Virus record (IMG/VR): IMGVR_UViG_3300030090_007211 | Coordinates: 64,001-128,000 of that record | Length of the DNA stretch: 64,000 nucleotides | Source: a virus | Strand: one strand, 5' to 3' | Notes under the pieces: generated by a model | Told to the model about the DNA's origin: nothing | Database searches by the model: none | What the model saw: the letters and a program-made list of their open reading frames with translations, nothing else | Program-made: the position numbers and the translations under genes | In this document: in pieces, positions 194-61,892 of the stretch | Position numbering within the stretch: position 1 is the first letter of the stretch | Layout of the letters: the number at the start of each line of letters is the position of its first letter

Positions 194-841
194 TTATTTT
201 ATCAATTTAGAAAGTTTTTTAATTTCACCTTCAGAAAGACTAATTACGTTACCATTTTTCTTAAAAGTAATTTTTCTACCTTCAGCAAAATGAGTACCTT
301 CTTCGTCTCGGTCTTCATGATCTTCATCATAACCCATATCTTTCTTAAGAGCGTCTAAATGTCTTTCGATTTCTCTTACTCTATCAGCAGGTGCCATTTC
401 TTCTTCATGTTCTAATTCTTCTTCCTCTTTATGGTCATGACCTTCATCATCTCCATAGTTATAAGTTTCTTCACCTTCAGAATCCTCAAAAATTTCATCT
501 TTATCGAATTTTTCAAGACCTTCTTCTGATTCAGGTGCCCCAGCTTCATCAGATGCTCCCGTATCACCAGTTCCAATAACATCGTCTTCATTAACTACGT
601 CACCATGATCTTCTTCATCTTTTTTAAGTGCTTCCGCTGATTCAGGTGCATCTACACCTTCAACATCTTCTTTTTCATCGATGTATTCACCTTCCTTAAT
701 TTCTTTTTCTTTTAATGCTCTAGCTTCTGCCATTTTTTGAGCATTTTCTATTTGAGTCATTGCCTCTTCACCTTCTGCAATTAACTCCAAACCCATAAGT
801 CTTCTCATGGCATTTGTTTCTTTTAATTGTTGTTTTTTCAT
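194..841 (-). CDS. Highly acidic putative internal-head/scaffold-like protein
   Basis: D/E-rich 215 aa; leader LKE..MRRLMGL; C-terminal KKNGNVISLSEGEIKKL motif shared with 848..1243. Confidence 0.6.
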   Translation of the reverse strand: MKKQQLKETNAMRRLMGLELIAEGEEAMTQIENAQKMAEARALKEKEIKEGEYIDEKEDVEGVDAPESAEALKKDEEDHGDVVNEDDVIGTGDTGASDEAGAPESEEGLEKFDKDEIFEDSEGEETYNYGDDEGHDHKEEEELEHEEEMAPADRVREIERHLDALKKDMGYDEDHEDRDEEGTHFAEGRKITFKKNGNVISLSEGEIKKLSKLIK

Positions 842-847
842 AACTTT

Positions 848-1243
848 CTATTTTAAGTCTTTTGATAATTGTTTTGCCTTTTCACCCTCTATTTTGTCCT
901 CAAAGTCTTCAATTTGTTTTTCTAAGAATTCTTCGATTTTATGTAAAGTAGCAATTGATTCTAAATTATACTTAGTGGATTTTAACATATTACTCAAGGT
1001 ACTAAGTTTAGCGATTATAGAGCCCACTTTTACTTTTTTGTCTTCCGCTCTACGAGATTCTCTATCTTCAGTTAAAAATTGATTGATTTTATGTTTATTT
1101 ACAATCTTTTTAATTTCAGATTCTTTTAATGAAATTACTTCACCATCTTTTTTAAACTTAGTTACTTCTTTTTTATTCTGTAGGATTTTTTTTATTTCAC
1201 CTTCAGTTAAAGTAATTGTTTTTCCATTTTTTCTAATTTTCAT
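848..1243 (-). CDS. Hypothetical protein with two K(N/D)G..I.L.E.EIKKI motifs and a coiled coil
   Basis: RKNGKTITLTEGEIKKIL / KKDGEVISLKESEIKKIV; ATATTTATA motif at 1261-1269. Confidence 0.65.
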   Translation of the reverse strand: MKIRKNGKTITLTEGEIKKILQNKKEVTKFKKDGEVISLKESEIKKIVNKHKINQFLTEDRESRRAEDKKVKVGSIIAKLSTLSNMLKSTKYNLESIATLHKIEEFLEKQIEDFEDKIEGEKAKQLSKDLK

Positions 1244-1289
1244 TTTATTAGTTTTTTTTATATAAATATATCATTTTAAATAAAAATTC

Positions 1290-2750
1290 TTATTTAGTGG
1301 TTTTATCTCTTTTTCTCTTTTTACCTTTTCTACCAATCTTAAACCATTTAAACACTTGTTTTATTTTAGATTCATCTCCTTGTGTCATAACTTTAACAAC
1401 ATTTTCACATGCTGGGAAATCTGCTAGGGTTTTAATTTCACCAAAAGTATTAGGTGTTTTTACAATAACTTCTTCCTTCATATTATTAAGGGTAGGTAAA
1501 GTAATAGTTATTTTCCCCACACCTCTATGGCAATCAGAACTAGGATTCCATTTACCTGCCCCTTTGTTAACACATTTAGCACTAATAACCATTTTTCCTT
1601 CATGTTTCCCCACAGTATCTGCATTAAAGAATTCATTATTAACACCATCAATACTTAATAAAAAAGTATTTCTTCTCCCCATTTCGTAGGTACCACCTTT
1701 TTTAGTTTTTTTGGCTTTTTGGTTAGATTTTATAATTTCTGCATCATCATATTTGTCTTTCCAAGGAGATTTATTATTAAGACTTGCATAATTTACTAAA
1801 TCTCCATTTCTATTTTCTCTTTTAAGTTGGTACCCATTTGCAAATACTTCGTAAACTGCGTGATCACAATTATGATCACCTTTATCATATATTACCTCAA
1901 TCACTGAATTATTAAAACACTCGTATAATACTTCTGTCTGTTCATCATCATTAGTGTCATCATCATTAGTGTCATCATCATTAGTGTCATCATCATTAGT
2001 ATTATCGTCATTAGTGTCATCATCATTGGTATTATCATCATTAGTGTCATCATCTTGCGTTTGATCTAAAATAGGGTCATAACAAAGAGTGATAATAATA
2101 TTAACAATTTGACCTGGTTTAAAAGTTTCACCACTAGGAATCTTCCAACCAGTAGTATTTACATCATTAGTGCCGCCAGTATCGATAACAAATCCTTCTG
2201 CTTTATTTAAAGTATCTTGTAATACCCCTTCTTTAAATTTAACATTAATAGTAGATAACCCTTCTTTTCCACCAAGTTGTGCTGCAACTCCTTTAGCTCT
2301 ATTTTTCGCCAATTCTTTATTCTTAGTGTATTCGGGAGAGTTTTTATCTTTTGTATATTTTTTAGCTTCCGGTGCTGTGGCATTAAATGGTGTTTTTCTA
2401 TCATTTTTTAAATCAGGAACTACTGAATATTTACGCCAAAAATTACTAGCACCCCCCATTACTTTAAATTCTGTTACATATACTAAATTTTCTTTAACTT
2501 TAGAAGATAAAGTAACATCATTTTTAATGGTACTTTTTACTTTTTCAATAAATCCTTTAAAAGAGTTGGATTTCTCTGCATTTTGTATGGGGAACGTCCC
2601 TGTATAACTTATAGTTTTACAGACAGGTTTCTTCTCAACTTTAGTTTCTTCTTGTTCTCTAATAATCGGATTTTTATATTGTCCATTTTTATAAGACATT
2701 AAACCCTGCATTCTTTGAATCTCCTCAATTAAGGTTTGTTTCTTTTTCAT
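1290..2750 (-). CDS. Putative virion cargo protein with LIEE/IIRE leader and DDxTN repeat linker
   Basis: 486-aa ORF; MKKKQTLIEEIQRMQGLM...IIREQEE; two Cys-containing regions joined by (DDDTN/DDNTN)n. Confidence 0.65.
   Translation of the reverse strand: MKKKQTLIEEIQRMQGLMSYKNGQYKNPIIREQEETKVEKKPVCKTISYTGTFPIQNAEKSNSFKGFIEKVKSTIKNDVTLSSKVKENLVYVTEFKVMGGASNFWRKYSVVPDLKNDRKTPFNATAPEAKKYTKDKNSPEYTKNKELAKNRAKGVAAQLGGKEGLSTINVKFKEGVLQDTLNKAEGFVIDTGGTNDVNTTGWKIPSGETFKPGQIVNIIITLCYDPILDQTQDDDTNDDNTNDDDTNDDNTNDDDTNDDDTNDDDTNDDEQTEVLYECFNNSVIEVIYDKGDHNCDHAVYEVFANGYQLKRENRNGDLVNYASLNNKSPWKDKYDDAEIIKSNQKAKKTKKGGTYEMGRRNTFLLSIDGVNNEFFNADTVGKHEGKMVISAKCVNKGAGKWNPSSDCHRGVGKITITLPTLNNMKEEVIVKTPNTFGEIKTLADFPACENVVKVMTQGDESKIKQVFKWFKIGRKGKKRKRDKTTK
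1942..2054 (-). repeat. 15-bp tandem repeat encoding DD(D/N)TN x~7
   Basis: tcatcatcattagtg units seen directly. Confidence 0.9.
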
Positions 2751-2805
2751 AAATTTTATTTATATTAATAAATATCTATTTTTTAATAAAAAAAACCTTT
2801 ATTTA

Positions 2806-2837
2806 TTTGGTAAATTGCGTTTTTTATTGTATATTTG
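2806..2837 (+). promoter_or_regulatory. Bacteroidota sigma-A-type promoter (-33 TTTG / -7 TATATTTG)
   Basis: TTTG-N20-TATATTTG upstream of ATG 2853. Confidence 0.8.
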
Positions 2838-2852
2838 TATAAATCAAACACT

Positions 2853-4358: not shown

Positions 4359-5753
4359 TTAAGTATGTCTCTTTTTTAACGTCTTATCCAGACGTTTAAA
4401 TTCATTTATTAAATAAGAAGTGAATTTCATATAGACATATTCTCTTTCCAAAGGGTTAAGACCATATACATCTTCCATTTCTTTTTTAAATGAATCTTTA
4501 AAACCAAACCCTGATTCTATATTTTTACCAAACCATTCTATAACCCAATTATTACCCCCAGTAAATGGTACCTTTGCAATATAAAAGTTTGTCCACCCAT
4601 TAAAGGCAGTCTGTTTAATAAAAGTAGTGTAGTGTTTAAGTTTATCCACAACTTTATCCAGATAAGGTTTATTCTTCTCTATCATATCCACAGATTCATT
4701 TAGATAACTCAAATTCAACCTTTTAATATGTGGTGGTAAATATTCTTTCTTACTGATTAACATATAAATTATATGTTCCCCATACCACTCCCAAAAAAAT
4801 CTATCCATTTCAGAATAGGTTAAACCATAAACATTCGTTAATAAATCTTCTATGCAAGGAGGAATGACATAAAAATATGCCCCTGAGGATCCCCACTCTA
4901 TATAGGAATTAATTTTATTACACACACCATCTACATCAATTTCTCTATAACTATCATCTCTCCATTTGGTTTTTTTAACTAAATTTCTATATACCTTTTC
5001 CCTATAATTTTTTGATTTTTCTTCTCTGGTTGATTCATTTAAATTAAATGTTTGATTATCACTACCCTCCCAGTTTAAAGCCCTATGTAAAACATTTTTT
5101 ATCACCTTATCATTAATTTCTTTATAGATAGGATCATCTGCCTGAGTAATCCCAAAACCTAATATTTTTTTAATGTATTGTCGACCCATTTTTCTTATGT
5201 CCTGTTCTAAGTGATGTCGACCCATACTTTTATCATTATGGATCCATTCTGAAAATACATCTAAATGGATAGGGGCGTGTCGACTATCGCTAGAATATAC
5301 TGGAGGGAGAAAATATAATTGTTCCCTATCTGCGTCAATTACAGTAGAATTTATAATTTCTTGTGCAATTTTTTCCACTAACTTTCTCTGATTGGTAGAC
5401 TCATCTAACCGATTAACATCCTTACTATCCTTAAACTCATCAGAAATATGATAACTATTCTCATTATTATCATACTCTCTAATTTTATTTCTATAGTAAT
5501 TCCACACCCTCTCTGCCTCATCAGTCCCTAAACCAAATATCTCTTCTAGGTAATCTTTTAACTCCCCCAAAAAATTATGATAAAGGGTGAAGTCCATAGA
5601 AGATCTAATTGCAACCCCACGAACAAATACCGGACTTACAATAGCATCAAGGTTTCTATCATATAAGGTATTCTTATATAGGTGATCAGCAATCTTATTT
5701 AAATGATTGTATGACTGATTTGTAGATTCACTTAATATATTGTCCTTCTCCAT
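4359..5753 (-). CDS. Polyprotein of four 'YG..E..W..Y' helical domains separated by LSES/LDES/LNES/LNES
   Basis: Internal repeats visible in translation; ATATTTATA motif at 5760-5768. Confidence 0.75.
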   Translation of the reverse strand: MEKDNILSESTNQSYNHLNKIADHLYKNTLYDRNLDAIVSPVFVRGVAIRSSMDFTLYHNFLGELKDYLEEIFGLGTDEAERVWNYYRNKIREYDNNENSYHISDEFKDSKDVNRLDESTNQRKLVEKIAQEIINSTVIDADREQLYFLPPVYSSDSRHAPIHLDVFSEWIHNDKSMGRHHLEQDIRKMGRQYIKKILGFGITQADDPIYKEINDKVIKNVLHRALNWEGSDNQTFNLNESTREEKSKNYREKVYRNLVKKTKWRDDSYREIDVDGVCNKINSYIEWGSSGAYFYVIPPCIEDLLTNVYGLTYSEMDRFFWEWYGEHIIYMLISKKEYLPPHIKRLNLSYLNESVDMIEKNKPYLDKVVDKLKHYTTFIKQTAFNGWTNFYIAKVPFTGGNNWVIEWFGKNIESGFGFKDSFKKEMEDVYGLNPLEREYVYMKFTSYLINEFKRLDKTLKKRHT

Positions 5754-5830: not shown

Positions 5831-6145
5831 TTAATCTTTTAAAGTAATATTGTATTTTGCAAAACTACCTTCAGTAACTTGTTCTAAAGGGGATTCTCCC
5901 TCACCTTCAGCACCATCACCAAAATCCTCTTGTTCTTCAACAACATCATTAACTTCTTCACCAGTACCTTCCTCTTCTACTTCTTCCGCTTCAGTAGTTT
6001 CAGTAATTTCTTCTTCTTGAATAGTTAATCCTCCGTTATTCGCAAACCCTAATGAAAAACCTGCATGATTTTCTTCTATGATTCCAAGATTTTTCTTATT
6101 AGCCTCTTGAATAGCTTGTCTCTTTAATTTTCCTAATCTTCCCAT
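5831..6145 (-). CDS. Acidic protein with 'GRLGKLKRQ.I.EANK' leader
   Basis: Leader shared with 6161, 8888, 14318, 15172. Confidence 0.7.
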   Translation of the reverse strand: MGRLGKLKRQAIQEANKKNLGIIEENHAGFSLGFANNGGLTIQEEEITETTEAEEVEEEGTGEEVNDVVEEQEDFGDGAEGEGESPLEQVTEGSFAKYNITLKD

Positions 6146-6160: not shown

Positions 6161-7039
6161 TTATTTTGTTTTATTTTTTACCCAATCGAAATAAAGTTTT
6201 TCATTCCTAGTGAATATTGAACAATTATTTTTAACACAATTGTCTTCGAATTTCTTCTTTGCCCAATATTCTGGACCACCTCCCGCAACTTGAGCGCCAC
6301 CCCATACATATTTAGGGCATCCTGCACATTTACCTTTACGTTTGTCAGGGAAAGTAATTGGTGGAAGTCCTTTAATTTTTTTAATACAATTTAAAAATTG
6401 TTCCCATTTATTATTGGTACTAATCAGACCAGGATATTCAAACGAAACATAACGAATACATTTAACAATGGATCCACATTGTTTATCACTTACTTTATCT
6501 ACAATGTCTACTATTTCAATATCGTCTATTATATCACCAGCATTAGGTAGATCACCAATAGGTTCACCTACACCTCTCTTTTGATCTTTTTTTATGTCAT
6601 CACATTGACATTTTTTACACATTCCTGAATCTGCAGCATTAATAGTAAATAAATCTGTGTTTCTTAATACCTCACACATTTTATTTAAGGTATCTGGACC
6701 AACTATTCCATCTACACTTAATTTATATTTACTTTGGAATTCTTTTACTGCATCTTTAGTATGGTTACGAAATTTACCATCACAATATTGCCATTTCTGA
6801 CTACAATTATCATTCATCCCCCCACCTTCGTATTTGGGATTAAAATCATTATTTCCTAATACAAATTGTATGAATTTTACTATGTCTCCTGATGAACCAT
6901 TTTTTGCGTGTTTAATATTACATTTAATTAAACACCAGTCTCTATCATTTTTCCCTATGATTCCTGTTACAACCTCGTTAAGGACTCTCTTATTAGCCTC
7001 TTCGATTAATTGTCTTTTAATTTTTTCTATTCTTCCCAC
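6161..7039 (-). CDS. Peptidoglycan-binding domain protein, Cys-rich, with shared leader
   Basis: VKEFQSKYKLSVDGIVGPDT (PG_binding_1-like); likely GTG start at 7039 giving MGRIEKIKRQLIEEANKRVLNE, downstream of ATATTTATA at ~7055-7063. Confidence 0.75.
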   Translation of the reverse strand: MGRIEKIKRQLIEEANKRVLNEVVTGIIGKNDRDWCLIKCNIKHAKNGSSGDIVKFIQFVLGNNDFNPKYEGGGMNDNCSQKWQYCDGKFRNHTKDAVKEFQSKYKLSVDGIVGPDTLNKMCEVLRNTDLFTINAADSGMCKKCQCDDIKKDQKRGVGEPIGDLPNAGDIIDDIEIVDIVDKVSDKQCGSIVKCIRYVSFEYPGLISTNNKWEQFLNCIKKIKGLPPITFPDKRKGKCAGCPKYVWGGAQVAGGGPEYWAKKKFEDNCVKNNCSIFTRNEKLYFDWVKNKTK

Positions 7040-8582: not shown

Positions 8583-8888
8583 TTAATTTGCTAATTTTTT
8601 CAGTTTGTCGTAAACTATAGTCTTGTATACGTCTACAAGGTCATACATTTCATGTTCAGCCACACCATATAATTTGTTTACATAATATGTTAAATCATTT
8701 CGTATAACTGCGTTACCATGTTCCAAAGTACCTACATAGTAAATGTCTTCACTATCTAGAAAAGGATAAATCAAACCATACGCACCATATTCGTACCTAT
8801 CATATACCTTATTACTTAAAGGGACAATTTTAGTGTGTGATGCCAGATGTTTAGCAACCTTTAAAATATATTTTTCTTTTTTATTCAT
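8583..8888 (-). CDS. Stand-alone 'YG..E' family protein
   Basis: KYILKVAKHLASHT..YPF..YYVNKLYGVAEHEMYDLVDVY. Confidence 0.75.
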   Translation of the reverse strand: MNKKEKYILKVAKHLASHTKIVPLSNKVYDRYEYGAYGLIYPFLDSEDIYYVGTLEHGNAVIRNDLTYYVNKLYGVAEHEMYDLVDVYKTIVYDKLKKLAN

Positions 8889-9319
8889 TAATGTGCTGAG
8901 TTAAATGATAAAGGAATGGTTACCCCTGCACTAATAACACTACTAGGGATAGTAGGGGTGTTATGATGAGAATCATGATGGCCCAATGATCCTTCCAGAT
9001 CTAATTTAATATCATGATGTTTACCAAGATGGGGAAACTGCAATGAAAGGTGTTTAGAATGAGGATTATAATGTGCGTGTACATTGTGTGCCAAAGAATC
9101 CATAATACTCTTTTCATCCGAATGTATATCTAAAGATAAAGAATGTTTTAATTTCTCATCTTTATGGATCTTCTCTATTATCTCGTCCATATCATGATTA
9201 CTTAAATGTAATATATCTGATTTTAACTTTCCTATTCTTTCTTCAGAATCAGATTGTTCTAATAATCTCTTATTAGCGTCTTCTATTAATAACCTTTTAA
9301 TTTTTGCAATCCTTCCCAT
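8888..9319 (-). CDS. His-rich protein with shared leader
   Basis: MGRIAKIKRLLIEDANKRLLEQ leader; 18 His in 143 aa; ATATTTATA at 9336-9344. Confidence 0.7.
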   Translation of the reverse strand: MGRIAKIKRLLIEDANKRLLEQSDSEERIGKLKSDILHLSNHDMDEIIEKIHKDEKLKHSLSLDIHSDEKSIMDSLAHNVHAHYNPHSKHLSLQFPHLGKHHDIKLDLEGSLGHHDSHHNTPTIPSSVISAGVTIPLSFNSAH

Positions 9320-13271: not shown

Positions 13272-13574
13272 CTATTTACACATTTTATCTATCTTCATTT
13301 TTCCTACACCTTTATAACCACTTTTATAAATAACATTTTGTTTTAGACATGCACAAATCTCTTCTTTAGTGGTATCTATTTCCTTAACATTTTTCATGTT
13401 AACAATTATGTTATTCCAAAACTCATCCCAACTTTTTGTTTTACCATTATTATCTCCTATGGTATTAATGTCGTTATAATATTCTTTTGATGTATCGCAT
13501 TGATGTGTATCTTCTGTGATAACCCTTTTTACTATACGTTGAATGTCTGATTCTTTTAATTTAATTACTTTCAT
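13272..13574 (-). CDS. Cys-containing protein with 'I.L.ES.I.RIV..VI.E' leader
   Basis: MKVIKLKESDIQRIVKRVITE. Confidence 0.7.
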   Translation of the reverse strand: MKVIKLKESDIQRIVKRVITEDTHQCDTSKEYYNDINTIGDNNGKTKSWDEFWNNIIVNMKNVKEIDTTKEEICACLKQNVIYKSGYKGVGKMKIDKMCK

Positions 13575-14317: not shown

Positions 14318-15157
14318 TTATTCAGTTTTTAATACAACAAACCAATAGTTACCAACTTTAACAATATCCGACATTGCCTCATATCCATACTTATTTTTCA
14401 TATCGGTTAATCTTTGATTTAAATTATCTTCGGAGGGATCAAATATACCACTAATACCAGTAGTTGTATCACCATCTTTAGAAATAGTAATAGTATTCCC
14501 ATCTATAGTTGCATTACCATAATTATCTTTAGGTAACGCTAATAACTGATCTCTCGCATCTCCCAAATCATTAAATGTTATGGTAATGGGTTTTGATTTG
14601 TTACCACCACAGTGAGATTGATAATTAGGGTTTTTCCATTGGGCAAAATATTCTACTAACCCTTCAGGTGTTTTTTTCATATCACTAATATCTAAACTTG
14701 TACCTTTAGTTGGTAGGTGACCTACCTCATCTTTAAGGTGGTCTAACTTATATCCTTCACCATGACCCCAACCTCCTCTACGATCAAAAGAAGTGTATGC
14801 ATCACATGCATTGTTAACCTGAATAAAAGGTATGTCTACTTTAAATTCTACTTGTCCGGTATTATTATCTATTCTATTCCCTAATGTTTTATCTATAATA
14901 GTCTCTAATTTAATCCCATCTAAATCCACTATTGTCCATTGTCCCTTATTATATAACTTTTTTAATTCGTCCCCAACTATAGTAGTGATAGTATTAATAA
15001 ATCTATGTGTGTTATCATTAGGGTTTTGGGAAGGACCAATATAGGTACCACTCACACCATTACTACTAATATTGATGGAGGGAGAAGATTGTTCACCTAA
15101 TAATCTTTTATTGGCTTCCTCTATTAACTGTCTTTTTAATTTCCCTAGTCTACTCAT
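14318..15157 (-). CDS. Cargo protein with MSRLGKLKRQLIEEANKRLLGEQ leader
   Basis: Leader nearly identical to 15172..15678; cargo has YTSFDRRGGWGH motif. Confidence 0.75.
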   Translation of the reverse strand: MSRLGKLKRQLIEEANKRLLGEQSSPSINISSNGVSGTYIGPSQNPNDNTHRFINTITTIVGDELKKLYNKGQWTIVDLDGIKLETIIDKTLGNRIDNNTGQVEFKVDIPFIQVNNACDAYTSFDRRGGWGHGEGYKLDHLKDEVGHLPTKGTSLDISDMKKTPEGLVEYFAQWKNPNYQSHCGGNKSKPITITFNDLGDARDQLLALPKDNYGNATIDGNTITISKDGDTTTGISGIFDPSEDNLNQRLTDMKNKYGYEAMSDIVKVGNYWFVVLKTE

Positions 15158-15171: not shown

Positions 15172-15678
15172 CTATATTAATTTTACTTTTACCCCATTAC
15201 TGTTGGTTAAGGTAATAGGTTTGTCTCCCTCTATGGCTTTTGCAATACCGGTTCGTGTGTCTTTATTTTTATCTGTATGAATAGTAAATACTATTCTATC
15301 ACTGCTCGTTACCCCACCTGAAATAAATCTATAATCAATACCTTTTTGTTGCATGGCAGTTTTCGCTTTTGATAAACGGGATTTAACAATACTACCAGTC
15401 CCGTATGTTAATTTTATTTTTAATTGTAAATAATCATTTGGGACTAACTTAATAGATTCTATATTTGGGTTAAAGGTTCGACCATCCGCAATTATTTGTA
15501 GTTTATATGAGTGTGCAATATCTTTTTCTTGGGATGTAACCATTATACTATTATCTCCCCCTAAAGGAACTTTTACTATTGTAGTATCTGAAGGTATTTC
15601 ATCTATTCTCTGTTCACCCAATATCCTTTTATTGGCTTCCTCTATTAACTGTCTTTTTAATTTTCCTAGTCTACTCAT
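15172..15678 (-). CDS. Cargo protein with MSRLGKLKRQLIEEANKRILGEQ leader
   Basis: Shared leader, unrelated cargo. Confidence 0.75.
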   Translation of the reverse strand: MSRLGKLKRQLIEEANKRILGEQRIDEIPSDTTIVKVPLGGDNSIMVTSQEKDIAHSYKLQIIADGRTFNPNIESIKLVPNDYLQLKIKLTYGTGSIVKSRLSKAKTAMQQKGIDYRFISGGVTSSDRIVFTIHTDKNKDTRTGIAKAIEGDKPITLTNSNGVKVKLI

Positions 15679-16585: not shown

Positions 16586-17263
16586 TTAAAATTTTCTACG
16601 TTTTTTCTGTAAATCATCCATCATATCATGTGGTTGATCCCACCAACCATCACCTTTCTTTCTGAACTCATCTTCACTTTTTCTATTACCCTCTTTATCC
16701 ACATCCACTAATTTGATTCTTCTATGTTGTCCACCTGAAAAATCTGAATTAACTGCAATATCATTTATTTTTTGTTTATAGTCTGCAAACAATTTTTGTA
16801 TATTCTTTTTAAATTCTACTGTAAGTTTTTCCGCTTCTTCACTATATGTTTTTACACTATTAATTGCTTCTTCTATATCATATAGTTCATAATCACCTTT
16901 ATCTCTATCAGTATGTGCCAATTTTTCAGTTTTGGGATTATAATAAGGTGTATAGTATCCTTCTTTTTGTTCTTCACTATGATTTAATAAATCATATGAT
17001 ATATAATCAGGATGAGAGTCATCACCAAAAGAACCATGCCCCCTACTTTCTATGTCTCTTTCACTAACACCTGCGGAAAAATTCCACGCTTCAGGATTCA
17101 ACCGAAAGTATATACGTTTTTTTATTTCTGGGATATATGTACTCCAACCATATTTAGATTTTGCAATATGTAGTTCTGTATCTGGTGATCTATTAATCTC
17201 TGGCGATGTTAAATCATCAGGATTAAATTCTTCTTTAAGTATCTTTTGTATAATATGTTTCAT
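16586..17263 (-). CDS. Hypothetical cargo protein with MKHIIQKILKEE leader
   Basis: 225 aa; ILKE leader. Confidence 0.65.
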   Translation of the reverse strand: MKHIIQKILKEEFNPDDLTSPEINRSPDTELHIAKSKYGWSTYIPEIKKRIYFRLNPEAWNFSAGVSERDIESRGHGSFGDDSHPDYISYDLLNHSEEQKEGYYTPYYNPKTEKLAHTDRDKGDYELYDIEEAINSVKTYSEEAEKLTVEFKKNIQKLFADYKQKINDIAVNSDFSGGQHRRIKLVDVDKEGNRKSEDEFRKKGDGWWDQPHDMMDDLQKKRRKF

Positions 17264-17265
17264 TT

Positions 17266-18249
17266 TTAACTCATTGCATGATGATGGTGCATAAAATATT
17301 CGTAAGGGATATAACCGATATATTTTCTACGATAATAATTATTATTAAACACATCTTTTATTATGTTAACTCCTTTAGAACCTGAGGCATGAATCATATC
17401 TACTTTATTACCATCTCTATTATGGACAAATCCTGTGTGTCTTGCGTTTTTACCTCTACCGGATCTCCCAAACAATAAAATATCTCCTTTTTTGGTTTCG
17501 CCCCAATTCTTTTTTCCTTTTCTAAATCCTTTTTCTCTCAATAGACTTCCCGTAGTATCACGACCAGGAGAATCTAATTCCTCAACGTGCCTAAATGTCC
17601 AATCTACTAACCCACTACAATCTCCACCTTCACCATCAAACTCGTCTCCCCACTTATATGGTTCCCCTAATCTTTCTTCTGCAGTTTTTACAATTTTATC
17701 CCCAATAGTTAAATCTACTTCTTCATGATCATAAACACCATCACTTTCTTCATCATCATATTCAATTTCATGGTGCTCTACCTCTTCCTCATCACTTACT
17801 ACTCCTTCTTCTACTGAATTAATTAATTCTTCTACCCCTTTATCATGAAACTTAGCTTCTTTAGTGATTTCCTCATATAATTTGGTATAGGTGTGTGGTC
17901 CTACAATTTTATCCCATTCCATTGAATCTTTAAATACGTCTTTTTGAAATTTCAGAACCGCATCAGCAGTATCAGGACCATATACCCCATCTATTCCATG
18001 TGGTCCAACATCATATCCTAATGCAACCAACATTTTTTGAACTCTTTTTACATGACTTTTTTCATTAGATTTATATCTTTTTAAATATCTACCGTCAATA
18101 TCTCTTTGCCATTCATCCGCATTTTTACTTAAACTTTGATTGGCTGCGGTGGCAACACCACCTATCGTCTTACCTAATTTACTAATAATACTTTCATCTT
18201 CACGTAAGATTATTTTCTTAAATTGGCTTTCCGTAATTTTAATTAACAT
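17266..18249 (-). CDS. Peptidoglycan-binding + NlpC/P60 cell-wall hydrolase
   Basis: VQKML..LGY..G..GIDGVYGP.T..AV..FQ; PYKWG..DCSGLV..GDILLF..HTG..MIHAS; leader MLIKITESQFKKIILRE. Confidence 0.9.
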   Translation of the reverse strand: MLIKITESQFKKIILREDESIISKLGKTIGGVATAANQSLSKNADEWQRDIDGRYLKRYKSNEKSHVKRVQKMLVALGYDVGPHGIDGVYGPDTADAVLKFQKDVFKDSMEWDKIVGPHTYTKLYEEITKEAKFHDKGVEELINSVEEGVVSDEEEVEHHEIEYDDEESDGVYDHEEVDLTIGDKIVKTAEERLGEPYKWGDEFDGEGGDCSGLVDWTFRHVEELDSPGRDTTGSLLREKGFRKGKKNWGETKKGDILLFGRSGRGKNARHTGFVHNRDGNKVDMIHASGSKGVNIIKDVFNNNYYRRKYIGYIPYEYFMHHHHAMS

Positions 18250-18332: not shown

Positions 18333-18965
18333 ATGTTAACCAAAATCAATCTACTTTCTATAATATTAATAATTGTCTTGGGGTGTGAAAAAGACAAACC
18401 TTCTAATCAGGTGACGACACCAACATATACCTATAATATCTTATTACAACCCTTAGATGATAAAATAAGTGAAGTTTACTTAACCAGTGCAGAAAGAAGC
18501 TTAAAAGAGTATTTTCCGGAAGTTACCATAAAGGTGGCAGAACCTCTTGTTTTACCTGATAAATGTTTTAATGGGAAAAGATATAGGGCTGATTCCATTA
18601 TTAGATATTTGAGGTCTATAAAGACTAACGAATATCAAACTATTGTGGGTATAACCTCCCAAGACATTTCCAATACTAGAACATTAACTAAAAATGGAAA
18701 GAAAATAGTTTATGATGATTATGGGATTTTAGGGTTGGGGTTTAAACCGGGTCCTAGCTGCGTTATTTCTTATTACAGAATGGCTCGCAATATTCCTATG
18801 TTTAGTAGGACTGTGGTTCATGAATATATGCATACTTTGGGTGTACCTCATTGTGAACATAAACATTGTTTGATGCAAGATGGGAAAGGTTCAGGAAAAA
18901 ATATGAGAGAATCTACCCACGTACATGCAGAGTGTAAACACATCGCACTAAAAGGATTACATTAA
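18333..18965 (+). CDS. Archaemetzincin-like (peptidase M54) zinc metalloprotease, lipoprotein
   Basis: HEYMHTLGVPHCEHKHCLM; VLGC lipobox; promoter 18277-18308; exact start uncertain. Confidence 0.75.
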   Translation: MLTKINLLSIILIIVLGCEKDKPSNQVTTPTYTYNILLQPLDDKISEVYLTSAERSLKEYFPEVTIKVAEPLVLPDKCFNGKRYRADSIIRYLRSIKTNEYQTIVGITSQDISNTRTLTKNGKKIVYDDYGILGLGFKPGPSCVISYYRMARNIPMFSRTVVHEYMHTLGVPHCEHKHCLMQDGKGSGKNMRESTHVHAECKHIALKGLH

Positions 18966-20470
18966 GTAATTTGAACACCGAATTCTTTAGTTAACGAAGA
19001 AGGGGATGGACAAAATTCATCTTGTCCCACACCACCTAATTTTATAAAGTAATCTCCTTCTTTTCCAGGTTCTACTTTTACTAAATAATCTTTAGGGTTT
19101 TCAGACATTAAAAATACTTGTGTCCCTATGTTTGCCATTGCTTGTACTTTTGGGTTTTGAATGAATTGTGGATCCACATTAAAACATCCAGCACTTAAAT
19201 CATATTTGCTTGTCATACTTTCTACTGCCTCAATATATTCTGGTGGAATATTTCCGTATTGTAAATCCTTTTTTAATAATTTACTTAATTCTGCATCTGC
19301 TACCAATCTATTTTTGACAGGTACTATTGCATGTATTGCAGTACCTAAATCCACTCCATCAAGTGTACCTAATCCCAATGTGTTAGGTATACCTTTTTTA
19401 CCCCTATAACCTTTTTTATAATATTTACTATTGATTTTATAAATACCTGGTGCTTGATATCGTTTATGTTTTTTGGCGAGAATAGAATAATTATATACTT
19501 TTCCTTTAGTATATTCTGGTTTATCTGAAGCAACCGAGTTACTTGAAACTATATTCCCTTTTACACAGGTTTTTATAAATTTTTTATTCTTTAATCGAAT
19601 TGCTTTCCATTCCCCTCCTGATAATTGACACCATTCTGCACGTGTAAATACTACATCTTGTTGTTTATCTGCACTAGCAACCGATTGGGAATAATCAATT
19701 AATTTATAGTCTTTAGTAAATGCTAACACTAAATTTAAACGTGGATCCACAATAAAAAATGGTTTACCATTATTTGCGTTTCTCACTTGTATATAAGCTA
19801 ATTCCTTATTAATTCTATCTGCGCCTGGTACAGTATCTTTTACTGCAAATCCTCTCTCAATAGCATCTTTTTTATCTTTAACATAATCCCAATAAGTTGG
19901 ATTATTATAACGATTAAATATAGAATATAAATTTTCACCATCTACAATATAATTTAATGCGGTTAAAATATATTTATTATCATGTTTACCCTTCGGATCT
20001 AATTTCAATTTCTCCGCAATTTTTTTATATTCATTATTAACAAATTGTCTAAATTTATTACCTTCTATTGTATTTTTAAAAGGTGAAACAACAATTCGTT
20101 CATCACCAGAAATGTTTTTATAATTTCTTAATAAGTTAGCTCGTCTACCACCAATTGGTGCGGTTTTCTGATTTGATTGGTGTTTAGTATCTACCTCCAT
20201 AGAAGTTAGGGTTTCAGGCCCCACTATCCCATCAATCTTTAATTTATTTTTACTCTGGTAATCTCTAACTGCCTTATAGGTTTTATCTCCATATTTACCA
20301 TCTACACCATCTTTATTAGGACCAGAAGTCCCCAAATCATACCCATTATTTTTTAAAATTTGTTGTATTTCTTTTACTTTTTCTCCTTTACTACCTCTTT
20401 TATAAAGAGTTGTTGTCTGCTCTTTAAGTATTAATTTTTTAAATTGACTTTCTGTTACTAATATTTTCAT
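18962..20470 (-). CDS. Peptidoglycan-binding + L,D-transpeptidase (YkuD-like) protein
   Basis: GVDGKYG..AVRDYQ..KIDGIVGPET; FFIVD..APGIY..TAIHA..SAGCFNV catalytic H/C; leader MKILVTESQFKKLILKEQ. Confidence 0.75.
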   Translation of the reverse strand: MKILVTESQFKKLILKEQTTTLYKRGSKGEKVKEIQQILKNNGYDLGTSGPNKDGVDGKYGDKTYKAVRDYQSKNKLKIDGIVGPETLTSMEVDTKHQSNQKTAPIGGRRANLLRNYKNISGDERIVVSPFKNTIEGNKFRQFVNNEYKKIAEKLKLDPKGKHDNKYILTALNYIVDGENLYSIFNRYNNPTYWDYVKDKKDAIERGFAVKDTVPGADRINKELAYIQVRNANNGKPFFIVDPRLNLVLAFTKDYKLIDYSQSVASADKQQDVVFTRAEWCQLSGGEWKAIRLKNKKFIKTCVKGNIVSSNSVASDKPEYTKGKVYNYSILAKKHKRYQAPGIYKINSKYYKKGYRGKKGIPNTLGLGTLDGVDLGTAIHAIVPVKNRLVADAELSKLLKKDLQYGNIPPEYIEAVESMTSKYDLSAGCFNVDPQFIQNPKVQAMANIGTQVFLMSENPKDYLVKVEPGKEGDYFIKLGGVGQDEFCPSPSSLTKEFGVQIT

Positions 20471-27146: not shown

Positions 27147-27295
27147 TATCTATGATTTCTTTTTCTTTTAAATTTATTTATAATTTCATCCGCCTCCTCA
27201 ATTTGTGATTGTAATTCATCATGGAGAAATATCACCCCCATAATTGCAATAATAACACCACATGACCCAAAAATAATAATAAATTCCATATATTT

Positions 27296-43668: not shown

Positions 43669-44061
43669 ATGAAAACAGAAAATTTTTATACGTATGTGGT
43701 CGAATCTTTATTTAACTCCACACATTTAATTGAAAAAGGAACTCGACCCTCTGAAATTGTTATTGGGGGTAATTTCCACACGTCACCTACCAACTATAAT
43801 GAAAATTACTCACTATCCTTTGATTTTATTAACGGTGAAGTGCCTGATCTTACTTATTCCTTAGCACTATTACAACGATATCATACCTCTAGCATGAGTT
43901 TCATATGTTTCCATTCTCAATTTCCTAAGTATGTTATGGATAACTTCGGAGTACTAGAAGACGAAGTAGAATTTATATGGGAAAGATTAAGGAAAAGAAT
44001 AATTGCTACTATTCTCCAAGATCCGGCAAAGTGCCCAATGCTGGGATCGCTCTCCGCCTAA
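43669..44061 (+). CDS. Stand-alone 'YG..E..W' family protein
   Basis: FYTYVVESLFNST..FPKYVMDNFGVLEDEVEFIWERL. Confidence 0.75.
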   Translation: MKTENFYTYVVESLFNSTHLIEKGTRPSEIVIGGNFHTSPTNYNENYSLSFDFINGEVPDLTYSLALLQRYHTSSMSFICFHSQFPKYVMDNFGVLEDEVEFIWERLRKRIIATILQDPAKCPMLGSLSA

Positions 44062-44230
44062 CACCACCATATCCACCAGCAGAACCACCTCTTACTACCA
44101 CATCATAAATACGTGTTAACATTTCTCTATCTTCTGCAGTAAACGATACAGGTTTATTGTCTATTTCTTCTGCCCAAGATTGTTCGGCAATTACTTCTTT
44201 AATTATATTTCTGATTTCTTTTTTTTGCAT
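44009..44230 (-). CDS. Small protein with IRNIIKEVIAEQ leader
   Basis: Leader plus ATATTTATA at 44246. Confidence 0.55.
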   Translation of the reverse strand: MQKKEIRNIIKEVIAEQSWAEEIDNKPVSFTAEDREMLTRIYDVVVRGGSAGGYGGVRRRAIPALGTLPDLGE

Positions 44231-45165: not shown

Positions 45166-46443
45166 ATGAGACAATCTAAAAAACATAATATTATGGATTC
45201 GGTTAATGAATCAATGAAAATGATTATTTCTGAGGGTATTGTAAATGAAATTTTTAAGAAGGAAAAAATTAAATACCCCGATAATTTCATAAATAAAATA
45301 ATAGAGTATATTAAACGTAACTACCCAGAGGTAGTGAAGATAGAAAAAGATAAAGACTCTTGGTTTTCAAGATCATCGAAAGAATTTCTTCACATCTATG
45401 TAGATGAAGATGATGGACAACCTACTAATCTAGTGCAACATCCTTTAGAATGGACAATACACTGGGATTTAACAGATAATCTATTATCAGGATTACCACA
45501 CCCCATAGATATAAAGGTGACTAATCTTAATAAGGATACTAAATTAAGAGGGCATACAGGTGAAGGTATAAATGAAGTTTTTAGTCCTCTCGATGATCGT
45601 ATACCCAACGAAGATATTAAAAAATTTATAGATAGGGTAGTTAAAAGGATGGTGGATAGAACTGAAATTAATTTATATATGGAGGATTATGATCCTTGGA
45701 AAACGGGTAGTCCTTGGTTTGGTGATTTTATCACCCCACAATTCCCTAACGATAAAAAATATAAATTTAATATATCTTGGTTACTACAAGAACATTTTGA
45801 AAAAAATTTTACTTTTGTTAAATACTTTGCCAGTGAATTAATTGAGGCTTATGGTTTCTCTACTAGAGGGGAATTAGAGTATTTCGATTATGAATACCTT
45901 AAAAAATTAAAAGAAAAAGTAAAGTTGTTACAAATCCCTTTTATAAAAGAGAGACAAAAACAAAAGGAAGAATATCATAAAAGATATAATTTAAGTGAAT
46001 CAAGAAAAGATATAAAAAAGGAGAGAGATGATATTGAAAGGGCAGTGCAAGATCTGAATAGATTACATAATTTTGATGTATCATATGAGGAAATGACCCG
46101 CGGAATTGAAAACTCCTCTCCCCAGCCCCTCTCCTCTGATATATGGGATGAATTAGAGAATACTGAATCTAATGAAATATCTGTAGGAGACTTCGATAAA
46201 GTATTCGACATCTCTAACAAATATAATAAAAGTAACCCACTTAAACTTAAAAAGAAACTAAGTGATGGTACCTACAATTATCCTATCATAGTAAGATTCG
46301 ATGATAGATACTGGTTAGTCGCAGGTAACACAAGATTATGTACTGCAGCAGCAATGGGAATAACTCCTGAAGTAATAATTGCAGATATTAATAAACCATA
46401 CCCTGTAGATGAATCATTAAAACATAAAAATAAAAGATTATGA
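45166..46443 (+). CDS. Polyprotein: unknown domain + YG..E domain + ParB/Srx-like domain
   Basis: Linkers VNES/ISE/INE/LSES/VDES; FIDRVVKRMVDRT..EAYGFS..E; PIIV..YWLVAGNTRL..A..G; TATTTATA at 45141. Confidence 0.7.
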   Translation: MRQSKKHNIMDSVNESMKMIISEGIVNEIFKKEKIKYPDNFINKIIEYIKRNYPEVVKIEKDKDSWFSRSSKEFLHIYVDEDDGQPTNLVQHPLEWTIHWDLTDNLLSGLPHPIDIKVTNLNKDTKLRGHTGEGINEVFSPLDDRIPNEDIKKFIDRVVKRMVDRTEINLYMEDYDPWKTGSPWFGDFITPQFPNDKKYKFNISWLLQEHFEKNFTFVKYFASELIEAYGFSTRGELEYFDYEYLKKLKEKVKLLQIPFIKERQKQKEEYHKRYNLSESRKDIKKERDDIERAVQDLNRLHNFDVSYEEMTRGIENSSPQPLSSDIWDELENTESNEISVGDFDKVFDISNKYNKSNPLKLKKKLSDGTYNYPIIVRFDDRYWLVAGNTRLCTAAAMGITPEVIIADINKPYPVDESLKHKNKRL

Positions 46444-47368: not shown

Positions 47369-47821
47369 CTAAAGAGATTTAATATCAATAAGGGTGGTAC
47401 CTTTTCCTTTATTTTGAAGAGTAATTTCTTGTTCGTGGGGATAATAAATATTATTATGTAAAGTATTAAAAATATCAATTTGATCCTTATTAACACCCAC
47501 AGTTATCAACACTACTTTATCTCCCGCATCACTATATATTGATCCTTTATTATAGTGATTATATAATAGTTCTTTTTTATTGGGGGAATAATGATCACCT
47601 AGGGATTCTGTGTCTATTTCCTCTCCCTCATGTAAATATAATAAACGATAGAGGGTAATAGTCTCAGGTAGAGTATTTAACCACTCTAAGAGTCTATTTA
47701 AGTCTTCCATACCCCACTCATTATCTAACCCCATTTCTTCATAGGCATTAGACAATTGAGTTAGTTCGTCACCAGTTAAAGTAACTTCTTCGTTTAATAA
47801 TTTTATAAATGATATCATCAC
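47369..47821 (-). CDS. Putative ADP-ribosyltransferase (R-S-ExE clade) with LLNE leader
   Basis: ITLYRLL..LGDHYS..VLITV..YPHEQEITL; ATATTTATA at 47823-47831. Confidence 0.55.
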   Translation of the reverse strand: MMISFIKLLNEEVTLTGDELTQLSNAYEEMGLDNEWGMEDLNRLLEWLNTLPETITLYRLLYLHEGEEIDTESLGDHYSPNKKELLYNHYNKGSIYSDAGDKVVLITVGVNKDQIDIFNTLHNNIYYPHEQEITLQNKGKGTTLIDIKSL

Positions 47822-59432: not shown

Positions 59433-59492
59433 AATTTTCTTTTTTTAGTGTTTTTATATTTGATTAACTTATACAAATATACGACAAATATT

Positions 59493-59978
59493 TTAAACTG
59501 CCAAACATTTTTCCATAAAAAATGGAATTTCTCTATTTTTCCACTTACTAAAATGTTTTTTTTCTCTAATATAATACTCTCTGTAAGACTCCACTGCATT
59601 ACCTATCTTACATTCTTGAGGCATCGCCAATTTAAATGGGGTTAGATTACCATTTTCTTTTAATGTAGGATGATTTATTATACACCATTCTATTATATCC
59701 TGTGATTTATGTCTTTTACCATAACGATAGGTATATTCTAAACATAATTCCATACCTAAATCACATAACCATACATAATTTTCTAAACATTCTCTTGCCC
59801 ATATTGAACAAGGATGATTCTTATGAGATAATCTATAAGGTATGTCTAAAGAGGAATGTAACATATGATGTACCCCACATAATAGTTGGGCGGTTTCTAA
59901 TATCATTTTTACTACATGTTTATCATTATGATATTGGGCGCACTTTTTTGGGTCTTCATCTAAAATAAAAATATTCAT
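59493..59978 (-). CDS. Pyrimidine-dimer DNA glycosylase/endonuclease V-like protein
   Basis: MNIFILD..HVVKMILETAQLL..HKNHPC..W..EY..RYGK.H..AMP..YREYY. Confidence 0.75.
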   Translation of the reverse strand: MNIFILDEDPKKCAQYHNDKHVVKMILETAQLLCGVHHMLHSSLDIPYRLSHKNHPCSIWARECLENYVWLCDLGMELCLEYTYRYGKRHKSQDIIEWCIINHPTLKENGNLTPFKLAMPQECKIGNAVESYREYYIREKKHFSKWKNREIPFFMEKCLAV

Positions 59979-60080
59979 ACAATTTTATAATTTATGTTTT
60001 TACAAACATAACATATTTTTTTTAGAAAACCAATTATTTATTCATTTATTTTTGATATTTATTAGTATAAATTTATCTTT

Positions 60081-61892
60081 ATGAGTAAATTAACAAATTC
60101 AGAAATAAAAATATTACGTTTATTGGATAAGCATGTGGGGACACCAGATAAAGATCGCACTGTTAAATTTTTAAGAGATACCTTAGCATTTAACCATACA
60201 GACTCATTGGATTGGTGGAAGTTATGGTACCTCAATAAAGAAACTCAAGAAACTCCTTATGAACAAATGGAGAACATCAACAGAGGATTTTCCTTTTTAG
60301 TAGATGCTATAAAAGAGATAATATCCAATGAAGAGTTTTCCCCTATGGTAATGGTAGATAAAATGTATGATGATGACATTGAAAAATATGAAAAAATAAT
60401 TGGCCCTTATTTTCGTGAAAGTGGGAAGGACATTACTTTTGACTCCGAGGGGGTACAATTACATCTACCTCGAGAAGAATGGGCGGAATATTTTTCAGGG
60501 ATGGGAGATGACGACATATGGAGATATGAAGGGGCTAAAACCCACCATGATGGACAAGATGATGAAAATTTTGAATATGAGGAATTTGATTATATAAATC
60601 CTAATGAGGAATTATTTGATGAATTCAATAAATTAGGTGAAGCAGTAGGAGATAATAGAAAATGGAGTGTTGATAATAGACCAAATGATACAGACATTAC
60701 TGATTGGTTATACTCAAATTTAACTCGGGAAGATGCTGAAGACATCATACAACAATATATTTGGTCACTTGGTACAGCAGTAACACAAGCTCGCAACAAT
60801 GAGTTACTAGAATGGTATGAGGAAAAGGTGGATTATCCGGAAAGTAGATGTGATTCCTATTCTGATGATGAATGTATAACTATACCCTATGAAGATTTAT
60901 TATTAATGATAAAAGAAAATGAATGGATAACCCTAAGTCAACTAAAGGACGCTGGACTTAACGATGGAGTTGAAAATATTGCTGATGCATATTATGATTC
61001 TTGGTTGGATGATGAGGGATATGAGGAAGTTATGACTCACACGCGTGACACCGTAGAAAACATTATTACAAAAATTGAGGATGATGAAGACTATATGGTA
61101 CTAATTACAAAAAGAAAAGAATTTTTAAAATTACTTGAAAAATTTAAATTTAAAGAAGGTAGCTACGATTGGAAGTGTAAAGATAGTAGTTATGTAAGTG
61201 AAAATGGGAAAATTAGAGTATGTGTTAGAGATTATGACGCACAAAATGAAAAAGTTAAGTTTTTCTACGATGGAGAAGCCCACTTAACCCCCTTAAATGA
61301 TTTCATTGCGTGGGCACAAGGTAGTATATTAGAACTTAGTGAAAATATTAGAATAGGAAAATATAGACTTATAATGGAAAGTATTGCTTCCGATGCAGAA
61401 ATAACTAAAATTGCAATATTTGATTTTGACGGTACACTCATGAATACTCCTCAGGCAGAAGAAGGTAAAAAACAATGGGAAATTAAAACTGGGAAACCTT
61501 ATCCTCATATTGGATGGTGGGGAAGACCAGAATCTTTAGACACTGACGTATTTAACATTAAACCTATAGTCTCTACTATTTTAGATTATAATATAGAAAT
61601 AGATGATCCCAATACTTTAGTTATTATGTTAACTGGTAGATTACCTAAACAAGCACCTCAAGTAGAAAATATATTAAATGATTATAATATAGTATTTGAT
61701 GAATATCACTATAAAGAAGATGGTGATACCTTAAAAAGTAAAATAAATACTATTAAAAGTCTTTTACTTAGATATCCTAATGTGAATTTTATTGAAATGT
61801 ATGAGGATAGAGTCCCTCACGCTATTGCATTTGAAGAATGGGGTGAAGAAAATAATATGCCAATAAAGGTAAATGTAGTTACACCTAGCTAG
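60081..61892 (+). CDS. Large acidic protein with C-terminal HAD (Swiss-Army-Knife RNA-repair-like) phosphatase
   Basis: IFDFDGTLMNTP..GWW..MLTGR..MYEDR..H; preceded by LSE/IMES linkers; ATATTTAT at 60055. Confidence 0.75.
   Translation: MSKLTNSEIKILRLLDKHVGTPDKDRTVKFLRDTLAFNHTDSLDWWKLWYLNKETQETPYEQMENINRGFSFLVDAIKEIISNEEFSPMVMVDKMYDDDIEKYEKIIGPYFRESGKDITFDSEGVQLHLPREEWAEYFSGMGDDDIWRYEGAKTHHDGQDDENFEYEEFDYINPNEELFDEFNKLGEAVGDNRKWSVDNRPNDTDITDWLYSNLTREDAEDIIQQYIWSLGTAVTQARNNELLEWYEEKVDYPESRCDSYSDDECITIPYEDLLLMIKENEWITLSQLKDAGLNDGVENIADAYYDSWLDDEGYEEVMTHTRDTVENIITKIEDDEDYMVLITKRKEFLKLLEKFKFKEGSYDWKCKDSSYVSENGKIRVCVRDYDAQNEKVKFFYDGEAHLTPLNDFIAWAQGSILELSENIRIGKYRLIMESIASDAEITKIAIFDFDGTLMNTPQAEEGKKQWEIKTGKPYPHIGWWGRPESLDTDVFNIKPIVSTILDYNIEIDDPNTLVIMLTGRLPKQAPQVENILNDYNIVFDEYHYKEDGDTLKSKINTIKSLLLRYPNVNFIEMYEDRVPHAIAFEEWGEENNMPIKVNVVTPS

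Follow-up and report, generated by a model that had tools for sequence, protein, structure and literature searches.

We examined a 64,000-nucleotide window (positions 64,001 to 128,000 of IMG/VR record IMGVR_UViG_3300030090_007211) of a 152-kb genome fragment (CheckV 46%) from an uncultivated marine T4-like jumbo phage. The genome has 30% G+C and is rich in Lys, Ile, and Glu; a megablast search with 10 kb of it against cultured phages gave zero matches. Genes are named below by the lower coordinate of their span in the window. The original prediction held that at least 14 otherwise unrelated proteins carry one of a few reusable leaders. In its core this was borne out, and the count proved larger: the 152-kb contig contains 27 to 29 leader genes, 13 of them inside the window. 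The leaders are 12 to 24 residues long, in some cases in tandem, and form four short hydrophilic classes.

Class A (MGRLGKLKRQ type) was found by profile search in exactly five copies in the whole contig, all N-terminal and all in the five genes in which it had been predicted, each on the minus strand. These are 5831 (5831..6145; 104 amino acids [aa]; leader at about residues 1 to 24, positions 6074 to 6145, ending in I-I-E), 6161 (6161..7039; 292 aa; PG_binding_1 cargo), 8888 (8888..9319; 143 aa; leader end L-L-E), 14318 (14318..15157; 279 aa; leader at residues 1 to 22, positions 15092 to 15157), and 15172 (15172..15678; 168 aa; leader end I-L-G-E). Gene 6161 starts with a GTG at 7039, with ATATTTAT 17 nt upstream of it. 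An AlphaFold2 model of 14318 renders the leader as a lone helix at a pLDDT below 50 and the cargo at above 90; the leader is thus modeled, with low confidence, as a loose helix detached from the rest. Foldseek searches (PDB and VIA-wide) returned no convincing fold for the 14318 cargo.

Class B (MKIKLTESQ type) is the largest class, with 15 genes genome-wide. In the window, class B leaders stand at the start of four minus-strand genes: 13272 (13272..13574; 100 aa; long variant, leader end V-I-T-E), 17266 (17266..18249; 327 aa; PG_binding_1 plus an NlpC/P60 cell wall peptidase), 18962 (18962..20470; 502 aa; PG_binding_1 and a C-terminal part that a language-model atlas links only weakly to YkuD L,D-transpeptidases), and 31106 (31106..31603; 165 aa; long variant). 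The long variant also occurs twice in tandem at the N terminus of gene 848 (848..1243, minus strand; 131 aa), and the C terminus of gene 194 holds an extra copy similar to it. All six predicted class B sites were confirmed, those in 848 and 194 being long-variant or similar copies.

The N terminus of 194 itself (194..841, minus strand; 215 aa) carries a leader of class C (RM.GLM type), which ends in L-I-A-E. Class C is separate from class B and comprises five genes; it includes 1290 (1290..2750, minus strand; 486 aa), in which the motif is first followed by a hydrophobic-x-E at residue 32 (I-R-E). Class D (KILKEE type) has four genes, among them 16586 (16586..17263, minus strand; 225 aa). Genes 1290 and 16586 had been among four predicted to carry shorter leaders; the other two match no leader profile. 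One is a small open reading frame (ORF) at 44009..44230 (minus strand), with ATATTTAT 17 nt upstream, and the other is an ORF at 47369..47821 (minus strand).

The leaders are modular. At a score of at least 40, the N-terminal 28-residue windows yielded 36 protein pairs and internal control windows none. BLAST comparison of 29 leader proteins beyond their leaders found no similarity among the cargos apart from PG_binding_1 domains and a single tandem pair. A profile scan of five related genomes recovered 70 leaders, of which 68 were N-terminal. The cargo domains recognized among the leader proteins include those of cell wall enzymes (NlpC/P60 and a SleB-type hydrolase) as well as PG binding, and 20 leader or neighboring proteins had zero matches in PHROGs. 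From the predicted cargo list, NlpC/P60 and PG binding stood, and the L,D-transpeptidase persists as a weak lead; neither the ADP-ribosyltransferase (ART) proposed for 47369, an ORF with no more than a weak lead in the language-model atlas, nor the ParB-like domain proposed for 45166 found Pfam support. In one marine metatranscriptome run, contigs covered four leader genes, including part of 17266; such RNA-library contigs are not proof of transcription.

Among relatives, different leaders sit on the same cargo. Orthologues of the 14318 cargo bear a class A, B, or C leader, a leader of a fifth class (E), or a lipoprotein signal peptide, and the junction in the swapped orthologues always lies directly after the Glu of a hydrophobic-x-Glu. 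In two related contigs, 6161 orthologues have class B in place of class A with an identical V-L-N-E junction. For class D, no swapping was seen among 21 homologues; those of 16586 all keep class D. The long class B variant, as in 848, recurs in relatives. Class B is absent from the cultured relative Flavobacterium phage immuto, which has different leaders of its own; a short tblastn search with one of these matched immuto strains only. The most conserved leader protein belongs to a 278-aa family adjoining the TerL gene, in which every member has leader residues M1, K2, I3, L5, T6, E7, and Q9, at an overall identity of 33%. It occupies the position of the T4 small terminase, and a C-terminal winged helix was the sole fold found for it by fold search. 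Should this protein be TerS, it would be an odd bearer of a pure cargo tag.

The point at which cargos are exchanged resembles a head protease site. The cleavage rule of T4 gp21 is L/I-x-E, with the cut behind the Glu; the T4 capsid targeting sequence (CTS), an N-terminal tag of 10 residues, can bring foreign proteins along (PMC9026906, PMC9958956). An [LIVMF]-x-E was present between -1 and +9 relative to the end of the motif in 66 of the 70 leaders from the five related genomes, compared with 27 to 32% of control windows, a count in which the class B and D leaders are not independent because their final Glu belongs to the conserved motif. The P3 residue of the 66 site-bearing leaders was Leu in 44 and Ile in 17 (61/66 together). 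Plain [LI]xE is common, occurring at base rate in about 30% of 11-residue windows, and we dropped it as a genome-wide statistic since its enrichment was no greater than that of [LI]xD or [LI]xK. The serine-extended form [LIVM]xES was enriched genome-wide (84 versus 50.5 expected; z = 4.7), and xDS, xKS, xQS, and xNS were not.

The genome encodes the matching head module: a gp23 capsid protein (3.6e-73), a gp20 portal (Portal_T4; 9.1e-80), TerL, and the prohead protease that the original prediction had proposed to look for. The protease is of the S77 (gp21) type (Peptidase_S77, PF03420; 87 bits against a cutoff of 27). Both of its catalytic residues are intact: aligned with PDB 5JBL, an inactive H-to-A, S-to-A mutant, it has His and Ser where the mutant has Ala. 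The maturation site of T4 gp23, L-T-E↓A (arrows mark cut positions, actual or putative), aligns with L-N-E↓A in the capsid protein of this phage, and the E-A pair is invariant across three distant phages. The protein at the scaffold position contains 18 [LI]xE (twice the background) and five hydrophobic-x-E-S sites, and the portal and neighboring head proteins hold further such sites. We also considered that the leader might mimic the C-terminal tail of the scaffold protein and rejected this, as the best match (a class C leader) ranked 6th of 158 control C termini, which is not significant. The S77 protease is encoded in all five of the large contigs that were found solely through the leader DNA pattern.

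Hydrophobic-x-E sites also recur inside longer proteins, where they had been predicted to mark domain junctions. Gene 4359 (4359..5753, minus strand) encodes four tandem copies of a helical domain of about 100 aa, with units beginning after L-x-E-S (residues 9, 118, 240, and 353). The same domain is also encoded by stand-alone genes, and 4359 is a candidate protease-cut polyprotein. Gene 41079 (41079..43163, plus strand) has at least four copies of the 4359-type domain, with unit starts at about residues 244 and 598 after I-N-E↓S and L-T-E↓N. Across 4359, 41079, and a gene at genome position 61866, a hydrophobic-x-E precedes seven of eight internal unit starts by no more than 4 residues, with Ser following it in six of the seven; the units are paralogous, so these counts are not independent. 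The junction claim held for these proteins only; in 15688, 32818, 45166, and 60081 the sites are within the base rate. Gene 45166 (45166..46443, plus strand) contains the repeat domain once and hydrophobic-x-E-S three times. Gene 60081 (60081..61892, plus strand) encodes a HAD_SAK_1 protein with one L-I-M-E↓S site before the HAD domain, and gene 32818 (32818..33879, minus strand) has a weak methyltransferase match below the Pfam cutoff. All three had been listed as cargo and none bears a leader; 32818 and 60081 are not supported as cargo, and 45166 is at most a putative member of the system.

What the leaders do can be read in several ways. They might be docking helices for the tail, baseplate, neck, capsid exterior, or a replication or assembly compartment, and might then remain attached after maturation. 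Among the cargos are several peptidoglycan enzymes, a kind of protein that is tail associated in many phages; the leader is modeled as a helix; one leader protein adjoins TerL and has a winged helix; and leader-like copies lie outside N termini in 848 and 194. Yet all leader classes end in the head-protease consensus, at the exact point of cargo exchange, the S77 gene accompanies the leaders in all five independently found contigs, and no recognizable tail protein was found among the leader genes. We consider docking unlikely, if worth keeping in mind. Export is another possibility: the leaders could be a nonclassical localization signal in the infected cell, replacing Sec or lipoprotein signal peptides and targeting the envelope of the current host. 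This would suit the PG-binding and PG-cutting domains among the cargos, as well as the 14318 homologues with lipoprotein-type signal peptides where the leader sits. A Sec or lipoprotein signal peptide, however, has a hydrophobic core of about 10 to 15 residues, whereas the leaders are hydrophilic, 37% charged, and without such a core (maximum 12-residue hydropathy at most 0.87, versus at least 2.39 for signal peptides of the same genome). About 10 other proteins of this genome carry ordinary signal peptides, so a second export route is unneeded, and no partner transporter was identified for one. The export account is therefore quite unlikely in our judgment.

We give still less credence, regarding it as highly unlikely, to the leader being the sequence that a modifying enzyme recognizes or a zymogen-type inhibitory propeptide unrelated to packaging. 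One leader on many unrelated proteins is a feature of RiPP-like systems, and inhibitory propeptides are common on hydrolases. Radical-SAM genes, however, were absent in seven of eight related contigs searched (none in five close contigs or in a complete 353-kb genome, the exception being one distant relative), and the interchangeability of five leader classes on one cargo is hard to reconcile with a single enzyme's recognition site or a fold-specific inhibitor. Finally, the similarity might reflect a nucleic acid-level feature (a translation initiation region or recombination linker) or a compositional artifact of AT richness, given the base and residue composition of the genome and leaders that begin at an ATG just past a shared upstream motif. 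Against this, 30 to 43% of codon pairs for identical leader residues differ synonymously, so the conservation is at the protein level, and the leader profiles match almost solely N termini when run on six-frame translations. These codon differences and the empty control windows largely refute the idea, which we regard as extremely improbable.

We favor, with a probability of about 0.6, a reading in which the leaders, like the T4 CTS, address proteins to the capsid and are then removed by the head protease. Core binding, cutting, packaging, and ejection we infer as follows. A short N-terminal peptide of any of at least four to five interchangeable classes would bind the assembling prohead core and draw the attached protein, whatever its type, into the head. 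The activated S77 protease would then cut after the Glu of the hydrophobic-x-Glu that ends the leader, probably also cut L-T-E↓S inside class B, and by the same rule separate the units of the repeat-domain polyproteins wherever hydrophobic-x-E↓S joins them. Once released, the proteins would remain with the DNA and exit the head at the next infection. Since several cargos are cell wall enzymes and lipoprotein relatives, action in the host envelope is suggested. A point against tags is that copies of the long B variant are internal in 848 and C-terminal in 194. The original prediction had argued for such a packaging tag, and the head module with its S77 protease and L-x-E↓A site, the exchangeable leaders ending in L/I-x-E, and the wall enzymes all fit; the leaderless multidomain cargo (the repeat-domain polyproteins excepted), ART and ParB, and the specificity of the upstream motif were not supported.

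The closest known system is the T4 CTS on the internal proteins IPI to IPIII, which gp21 removes, as it does the propeptides of Alt and gp24. There too a short N-terminal tag ending in L/I-x-E sits on unrelated proteins, and an S77 protease, gp23 with L-x-E↓A, and the gp20 portal are common to both phages. The T4 CTS MKTYQEFIAE had no match in the six-frame translation of this genome; the T4 control found two copies. T4 has one leader class, with two identical CTS copies plus IPI, whereas this phage has at least four to five classes and about 27 to 29 tagged genes per 152 kb, and unlike in T4, the putative cargo includes cell wall enzymes. Tag transfer in T4 was shown by experiment (PMC9026906); here it appears as natural leader swapping. 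In phiKZ, 201phi2-1, and SPN3US, many head-internal proteins are cut after Glu by a gp21-related protease; paralogues have conserved N termini in common, and multiple cuts may fall within one protein (PMC5694885). The phiKZ-type proteases prefer S/A/G at P3, and propeptides often exceed 100 residues (PMC5694885), in contrast to the L/I at P3, the short leaders, and the plainly T4-like head module here. Like these leaders, Sec and lipoprotein signal peptides are N-terminal, removable, and exchangeable, and they hold the same position on homologues of one cargo, but the predicted destination of the leaders is the capsid and not the membrane. Viral polyproteins likewise have tandem units that are stand-alone paralogues joined by a short motif fitting the virus's own protease; in this phage, the units repeat one small domain rather than different enzymes, and cutting is putative.

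More tentatively, at odds a little short of even, marine T4-like jumbo phages of about 320 to 350 kb may load their capsids combinatorially, with at least five tags and some 30 or more proteins per genome, including wall hydrolases, lipoprotein relatives, and cut polyproteins. The different leader classes might determine how many copies of a cargo are loaded, where it sits, or in which order cargos exit. Such a phage would be of the T4 lineage with an ejected proteome at a phiKZ-like scale, and the three-protein paradigm of T4 would be extended to a large, evolvable system. About one-eighth of the genes of an abundant marine phage group would encode head-packaged, injected proteins, which would change the reading of many "hypothetical" genes in such phages. 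With the leader as a simple sequence rule, virion cargo could be predicted from metagenomes, and capsids could be loaded with proteins by means of these natural, exchangeable tags. Our full-text literature searches found no paper printing these leader motifs. In the T4 literature, use of the CTS in this way is speculated only (PMC9026906).

The upstream motif ATATTTAT (for example, at 1262..1269 on the minus strand, 19 nt upstream of the start of 848) had been said to precede nearly all leader genes or their operons. Nearly all of the listed genes or operons do follow it, but it is not specific to them. It lies 3 to 25 nt upstream of about 55 to 60 of 237 genes, head and nonstructural alike, and precedes 13 of 29 leader genes and 42 of 208 others (P = 0.008). 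It is a general promoter-like motif, specific to neither leader nor structural genes, and the portal, protease, scaffold-position, and TerL genes have it in common with the leader genes.

A profile search of the six-frame translation recovered exactly five copies of the class A leader (MGRLGKLKRQ type), all of them N-terminal and at the predicted places, with the gene at 6161 using a GTG start at 7039. The class B leader (MKIKLTESQ type) forms the N-terminus of 15 genes on the contig, 5 of which lie within the window. A separate class C (RM.GLM type; five genes) accounts for the motifs at 1290 and at the N-terminal end of 194, and class D (KILKEE type; four genes) for that at 16586. The original prediction was right that the leaders exist, but its figure of at least 14 proteins was too low (total of about 27 to 29 leader genes per 152 kb), and the ORFs at 44009 and 47369, also listed as leader genes, match no leader profile. 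Comparison of N-terminal windows gave 36 protein pairs at a score never attained by internal control windows. The cargo parts behind the leaders are mutually unrelated, except for a common PG_binding_1 domain and one tandem pair. In five related contigs, 68 of the 70 leader profile hits were N-terminal. A search of IMG/VR with the exact DNA pattern of the nine initial class B residues retrieved 83 stretches, ahead of about 20 different cargos, and all five large contigs taken from this list encode a Peptidase_S77 protease. Our literature search found no paper printing these motifs. A possible further short leader, MK(F/I)..IL.E, was spotted by eye on proteins of 290 to 420 aa (window 63833 onwards; genome 129083, 129958, 130923, and 141269).

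The strongest new evidence is the modularity of the leaders. In other metagenomes, homologues of the 14318 cargo begin in five different ways, with a class A, B, or C leader, with a leader of a fifth class, or with a lipoprotein-type signal peptide of the ordinary kind. Hydrophobic-x-Glu invariably closes the leader, and the conserved cargo runs from the next residue on. Similarly, the class A leader of the peptidoglycan-binding protein at 6161 is replaced by a class B variant in two related contigs, and the junction is V-L-N-E in either case. Double leaders in tandem were also found.

A hydrophobic-x-Glu site lay between −1 and +9 of the motif end in 66 of the 70 leaders from the five related contigs, compared to 27 to 32% of control windows; the hydrophobic residue, third before the putative cut, was Leu in 44 and Ile in 17. 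Plain [LI]xE carries little statistical weight, because its enrichment is no greater than that of [LI]xD or [LI]xK. Hydrophobic-x-E-S was specifically enriched (84 observed versus 50.5 expected, with control motifs flat). It is concentrated in the class B leader itself (L-T-E|S) and also in the scaffold-position protein, the portal, neighboring head proteins, and repeat-domain proteins. Such sites had also been proposed to mark domain junctions in six multidomain proteins. This held for 4359 and 41079, whose repeat units start after hydrophobic-x-E, but the sites in 15688, 32818, 45166, and 60081 are within the base rate, and these four proteins have no leader. The repeat unit is a helical domain of about 100 aa, present in eight stand-alone genes (window 7134, 7505, 8583, 9400, 10989, 11667, 28461, and 43669), as tandem copies at 4359, 41079, and genome position 61866, and in 45166. 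Seven of the eight internal units start no more than 4 residues after hydrophobic-x-E, six of them then continuing with Ser; the stand-alone paralogues have no such junction. The pattern fits candidate protease-cut polyproteins, although the units are paralogous and their junctions therefore not independent observations. The family as a whole is expanded, with 18 or more copies on the contig and no Pfam or PHROG match.

The source contig (151,931 bp, 30% G+C, CheckV completeness of 46%) has most of its genes on the minus strand, and the window spans its bases 64001 to 128000. Its head module is T4-like, with the major capsid protein Gp23 (3.6e-73), a Portal_T4 match (9.1e-80), a large terminase gene, and a Peptidase_S77 prohead protease at genome positions 26496 to 27188 (87 bits against a cutoff of 27). 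The closest cultured relatives, Flavobacterium phage immuto and Rhodothermus phage RM378, are distant (capsid identity of 29 to 41%). In IMG/VR, more than 587 contigs carry a protease gene whose product is 59 to 95% identical to this one. Among the relatives retrieved by the leader pattern are a 324-kb genome (97% complete) and a complete one of 353 kb, and the window sequence occurs in marine metagenomes of several studies; the source is accordingly a T4-like marine jumbo phage, as yet uncultivated. On other proteins of the contig, ordinary signal peptides of Bacteroidota style suggest a Bacteroidota host. About 10 phage genes have predicted Sec or lipoprotein-type signal peptides of the ordinary kind (window 2835, 18306, 22712, 44264, 46440, 48791, 50116, and 63504 among them), so the phage is predicted also to use the normal secretion route of the infected cell for some of its proteins.

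[quoted passage not shown] The leaders here share the testable defining features of the CTS system, save sequence similarity to the T4 tag. The S77 protease of the contig keeps the catalytic His and Ser, which are recognizable because the solved T4 structure is a double Ala mutant, and the gp23 cut site aligns to L-N-E|A of the contig capsid protein. The scaffold-position protein is acidic and repeat rich, with an [LI]xE density twice the background. This protein (genome 24760 to 26436, minus strand) is in fact extremely acidic and has three tandem repeats of about 45 aa rich in Gly, Lys, His, and Asp. In the AlphaFold2 model of 14318, the leader is a lone helix (pLDDT of <50) and the fold behind it is confident. 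By analogy, the leader system probably works like the T4 CTS system, with putative packaging, cutting, and ejection. It differs in scale, as T4 has two identical CTS copies plus IPI, and, unlike T4, it has several interchangeable leader classes, cargo predicted to be envelope directed, and possible polyproteins.

The predicted cell wall cargo was borne out by PG_binding_1 plus NlpC/P60 behind the leader at 17266 and PG_binding_1 behind those at 18962 and 6161; an L,D-transpeptidase assignment at 18962 is a weak lead. Cargo outside the window includes a SleB-type hydrolase, DUF5824, and DUF4314. The proposed ART and ParB cargos were unsupported, and the HAD (60081) and methyltransferase-like (32818) domains, real or weakly real, sit on leaderless proteins. 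A tandem pair of DOT1-like methyltransferase genes, from a family unusual in phages, occurs at 21089 to 21661 and 21666 to 22235 on the minus strand (PF08123; 7.6e-13 and 2.9e-8).

A less likely alternative is that the leader docks its protein onto some other assembly. The best-conserved leader protein, a 278-aa class B protein (genome 32693 to 33529, minus strand), occupies the small-terminase position directly upstream of TerL, here and in most of the related contigs examined. This family keeps seven leader residues unchanged, the remainder having drifted to 33% identity, and the model has a helical body and a C-terminal winged helix; the protein might act as a DNA-binding head protein or as a small terminase of unusual type. 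The charge pattern of the leaders makes an export signal unlikely; unlike the genome's own signal peptides, the leaders are hydrophilic. Recognition by a radical-SAM enzyme would need a partner that is absent here: nine such genes cluster at 195 to 267 kb of the distant 324-kb jumbo relative, and a search of seven other contigs found none. Identical leader residues use different codons in 30 to 43% of cases, so the conservation is at the protein level and not that of a DNA repeat; these synonymous differences and the control-window pair scores contradict a nucleic acid-level feature. Mimicry of the scaffold tail by the leader was dropped, the similarity being nonsignificant.

An experimental entry point for the CTS-like reading is offered by the cultured phage immuto (vB_FspM_immuto), which encodes an S77 protease. 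At least five of its proteins (L088:10691-11991, L088:4735-5199, L203:1803-2318, and L203:25470-25865) start with one or the other of the phage's own two shared leaders, both of which are closed by hydrophobic-x-E. One leader is class C-like, and two leader genes lie directly upstream of the large terminase.

The motif ATATTTAT, noted earlier before nearly all the listed genes or their operons, is enriched about threefold before leader genes (P = 0.008) but is general rather than leader specific. It lies in sense orientation 3 to 25 nt upstream of about 55 to 60 of 237 starts, preceding the portal, protease, scaffold-position, and terminase genes as well as many nonstructural genes.
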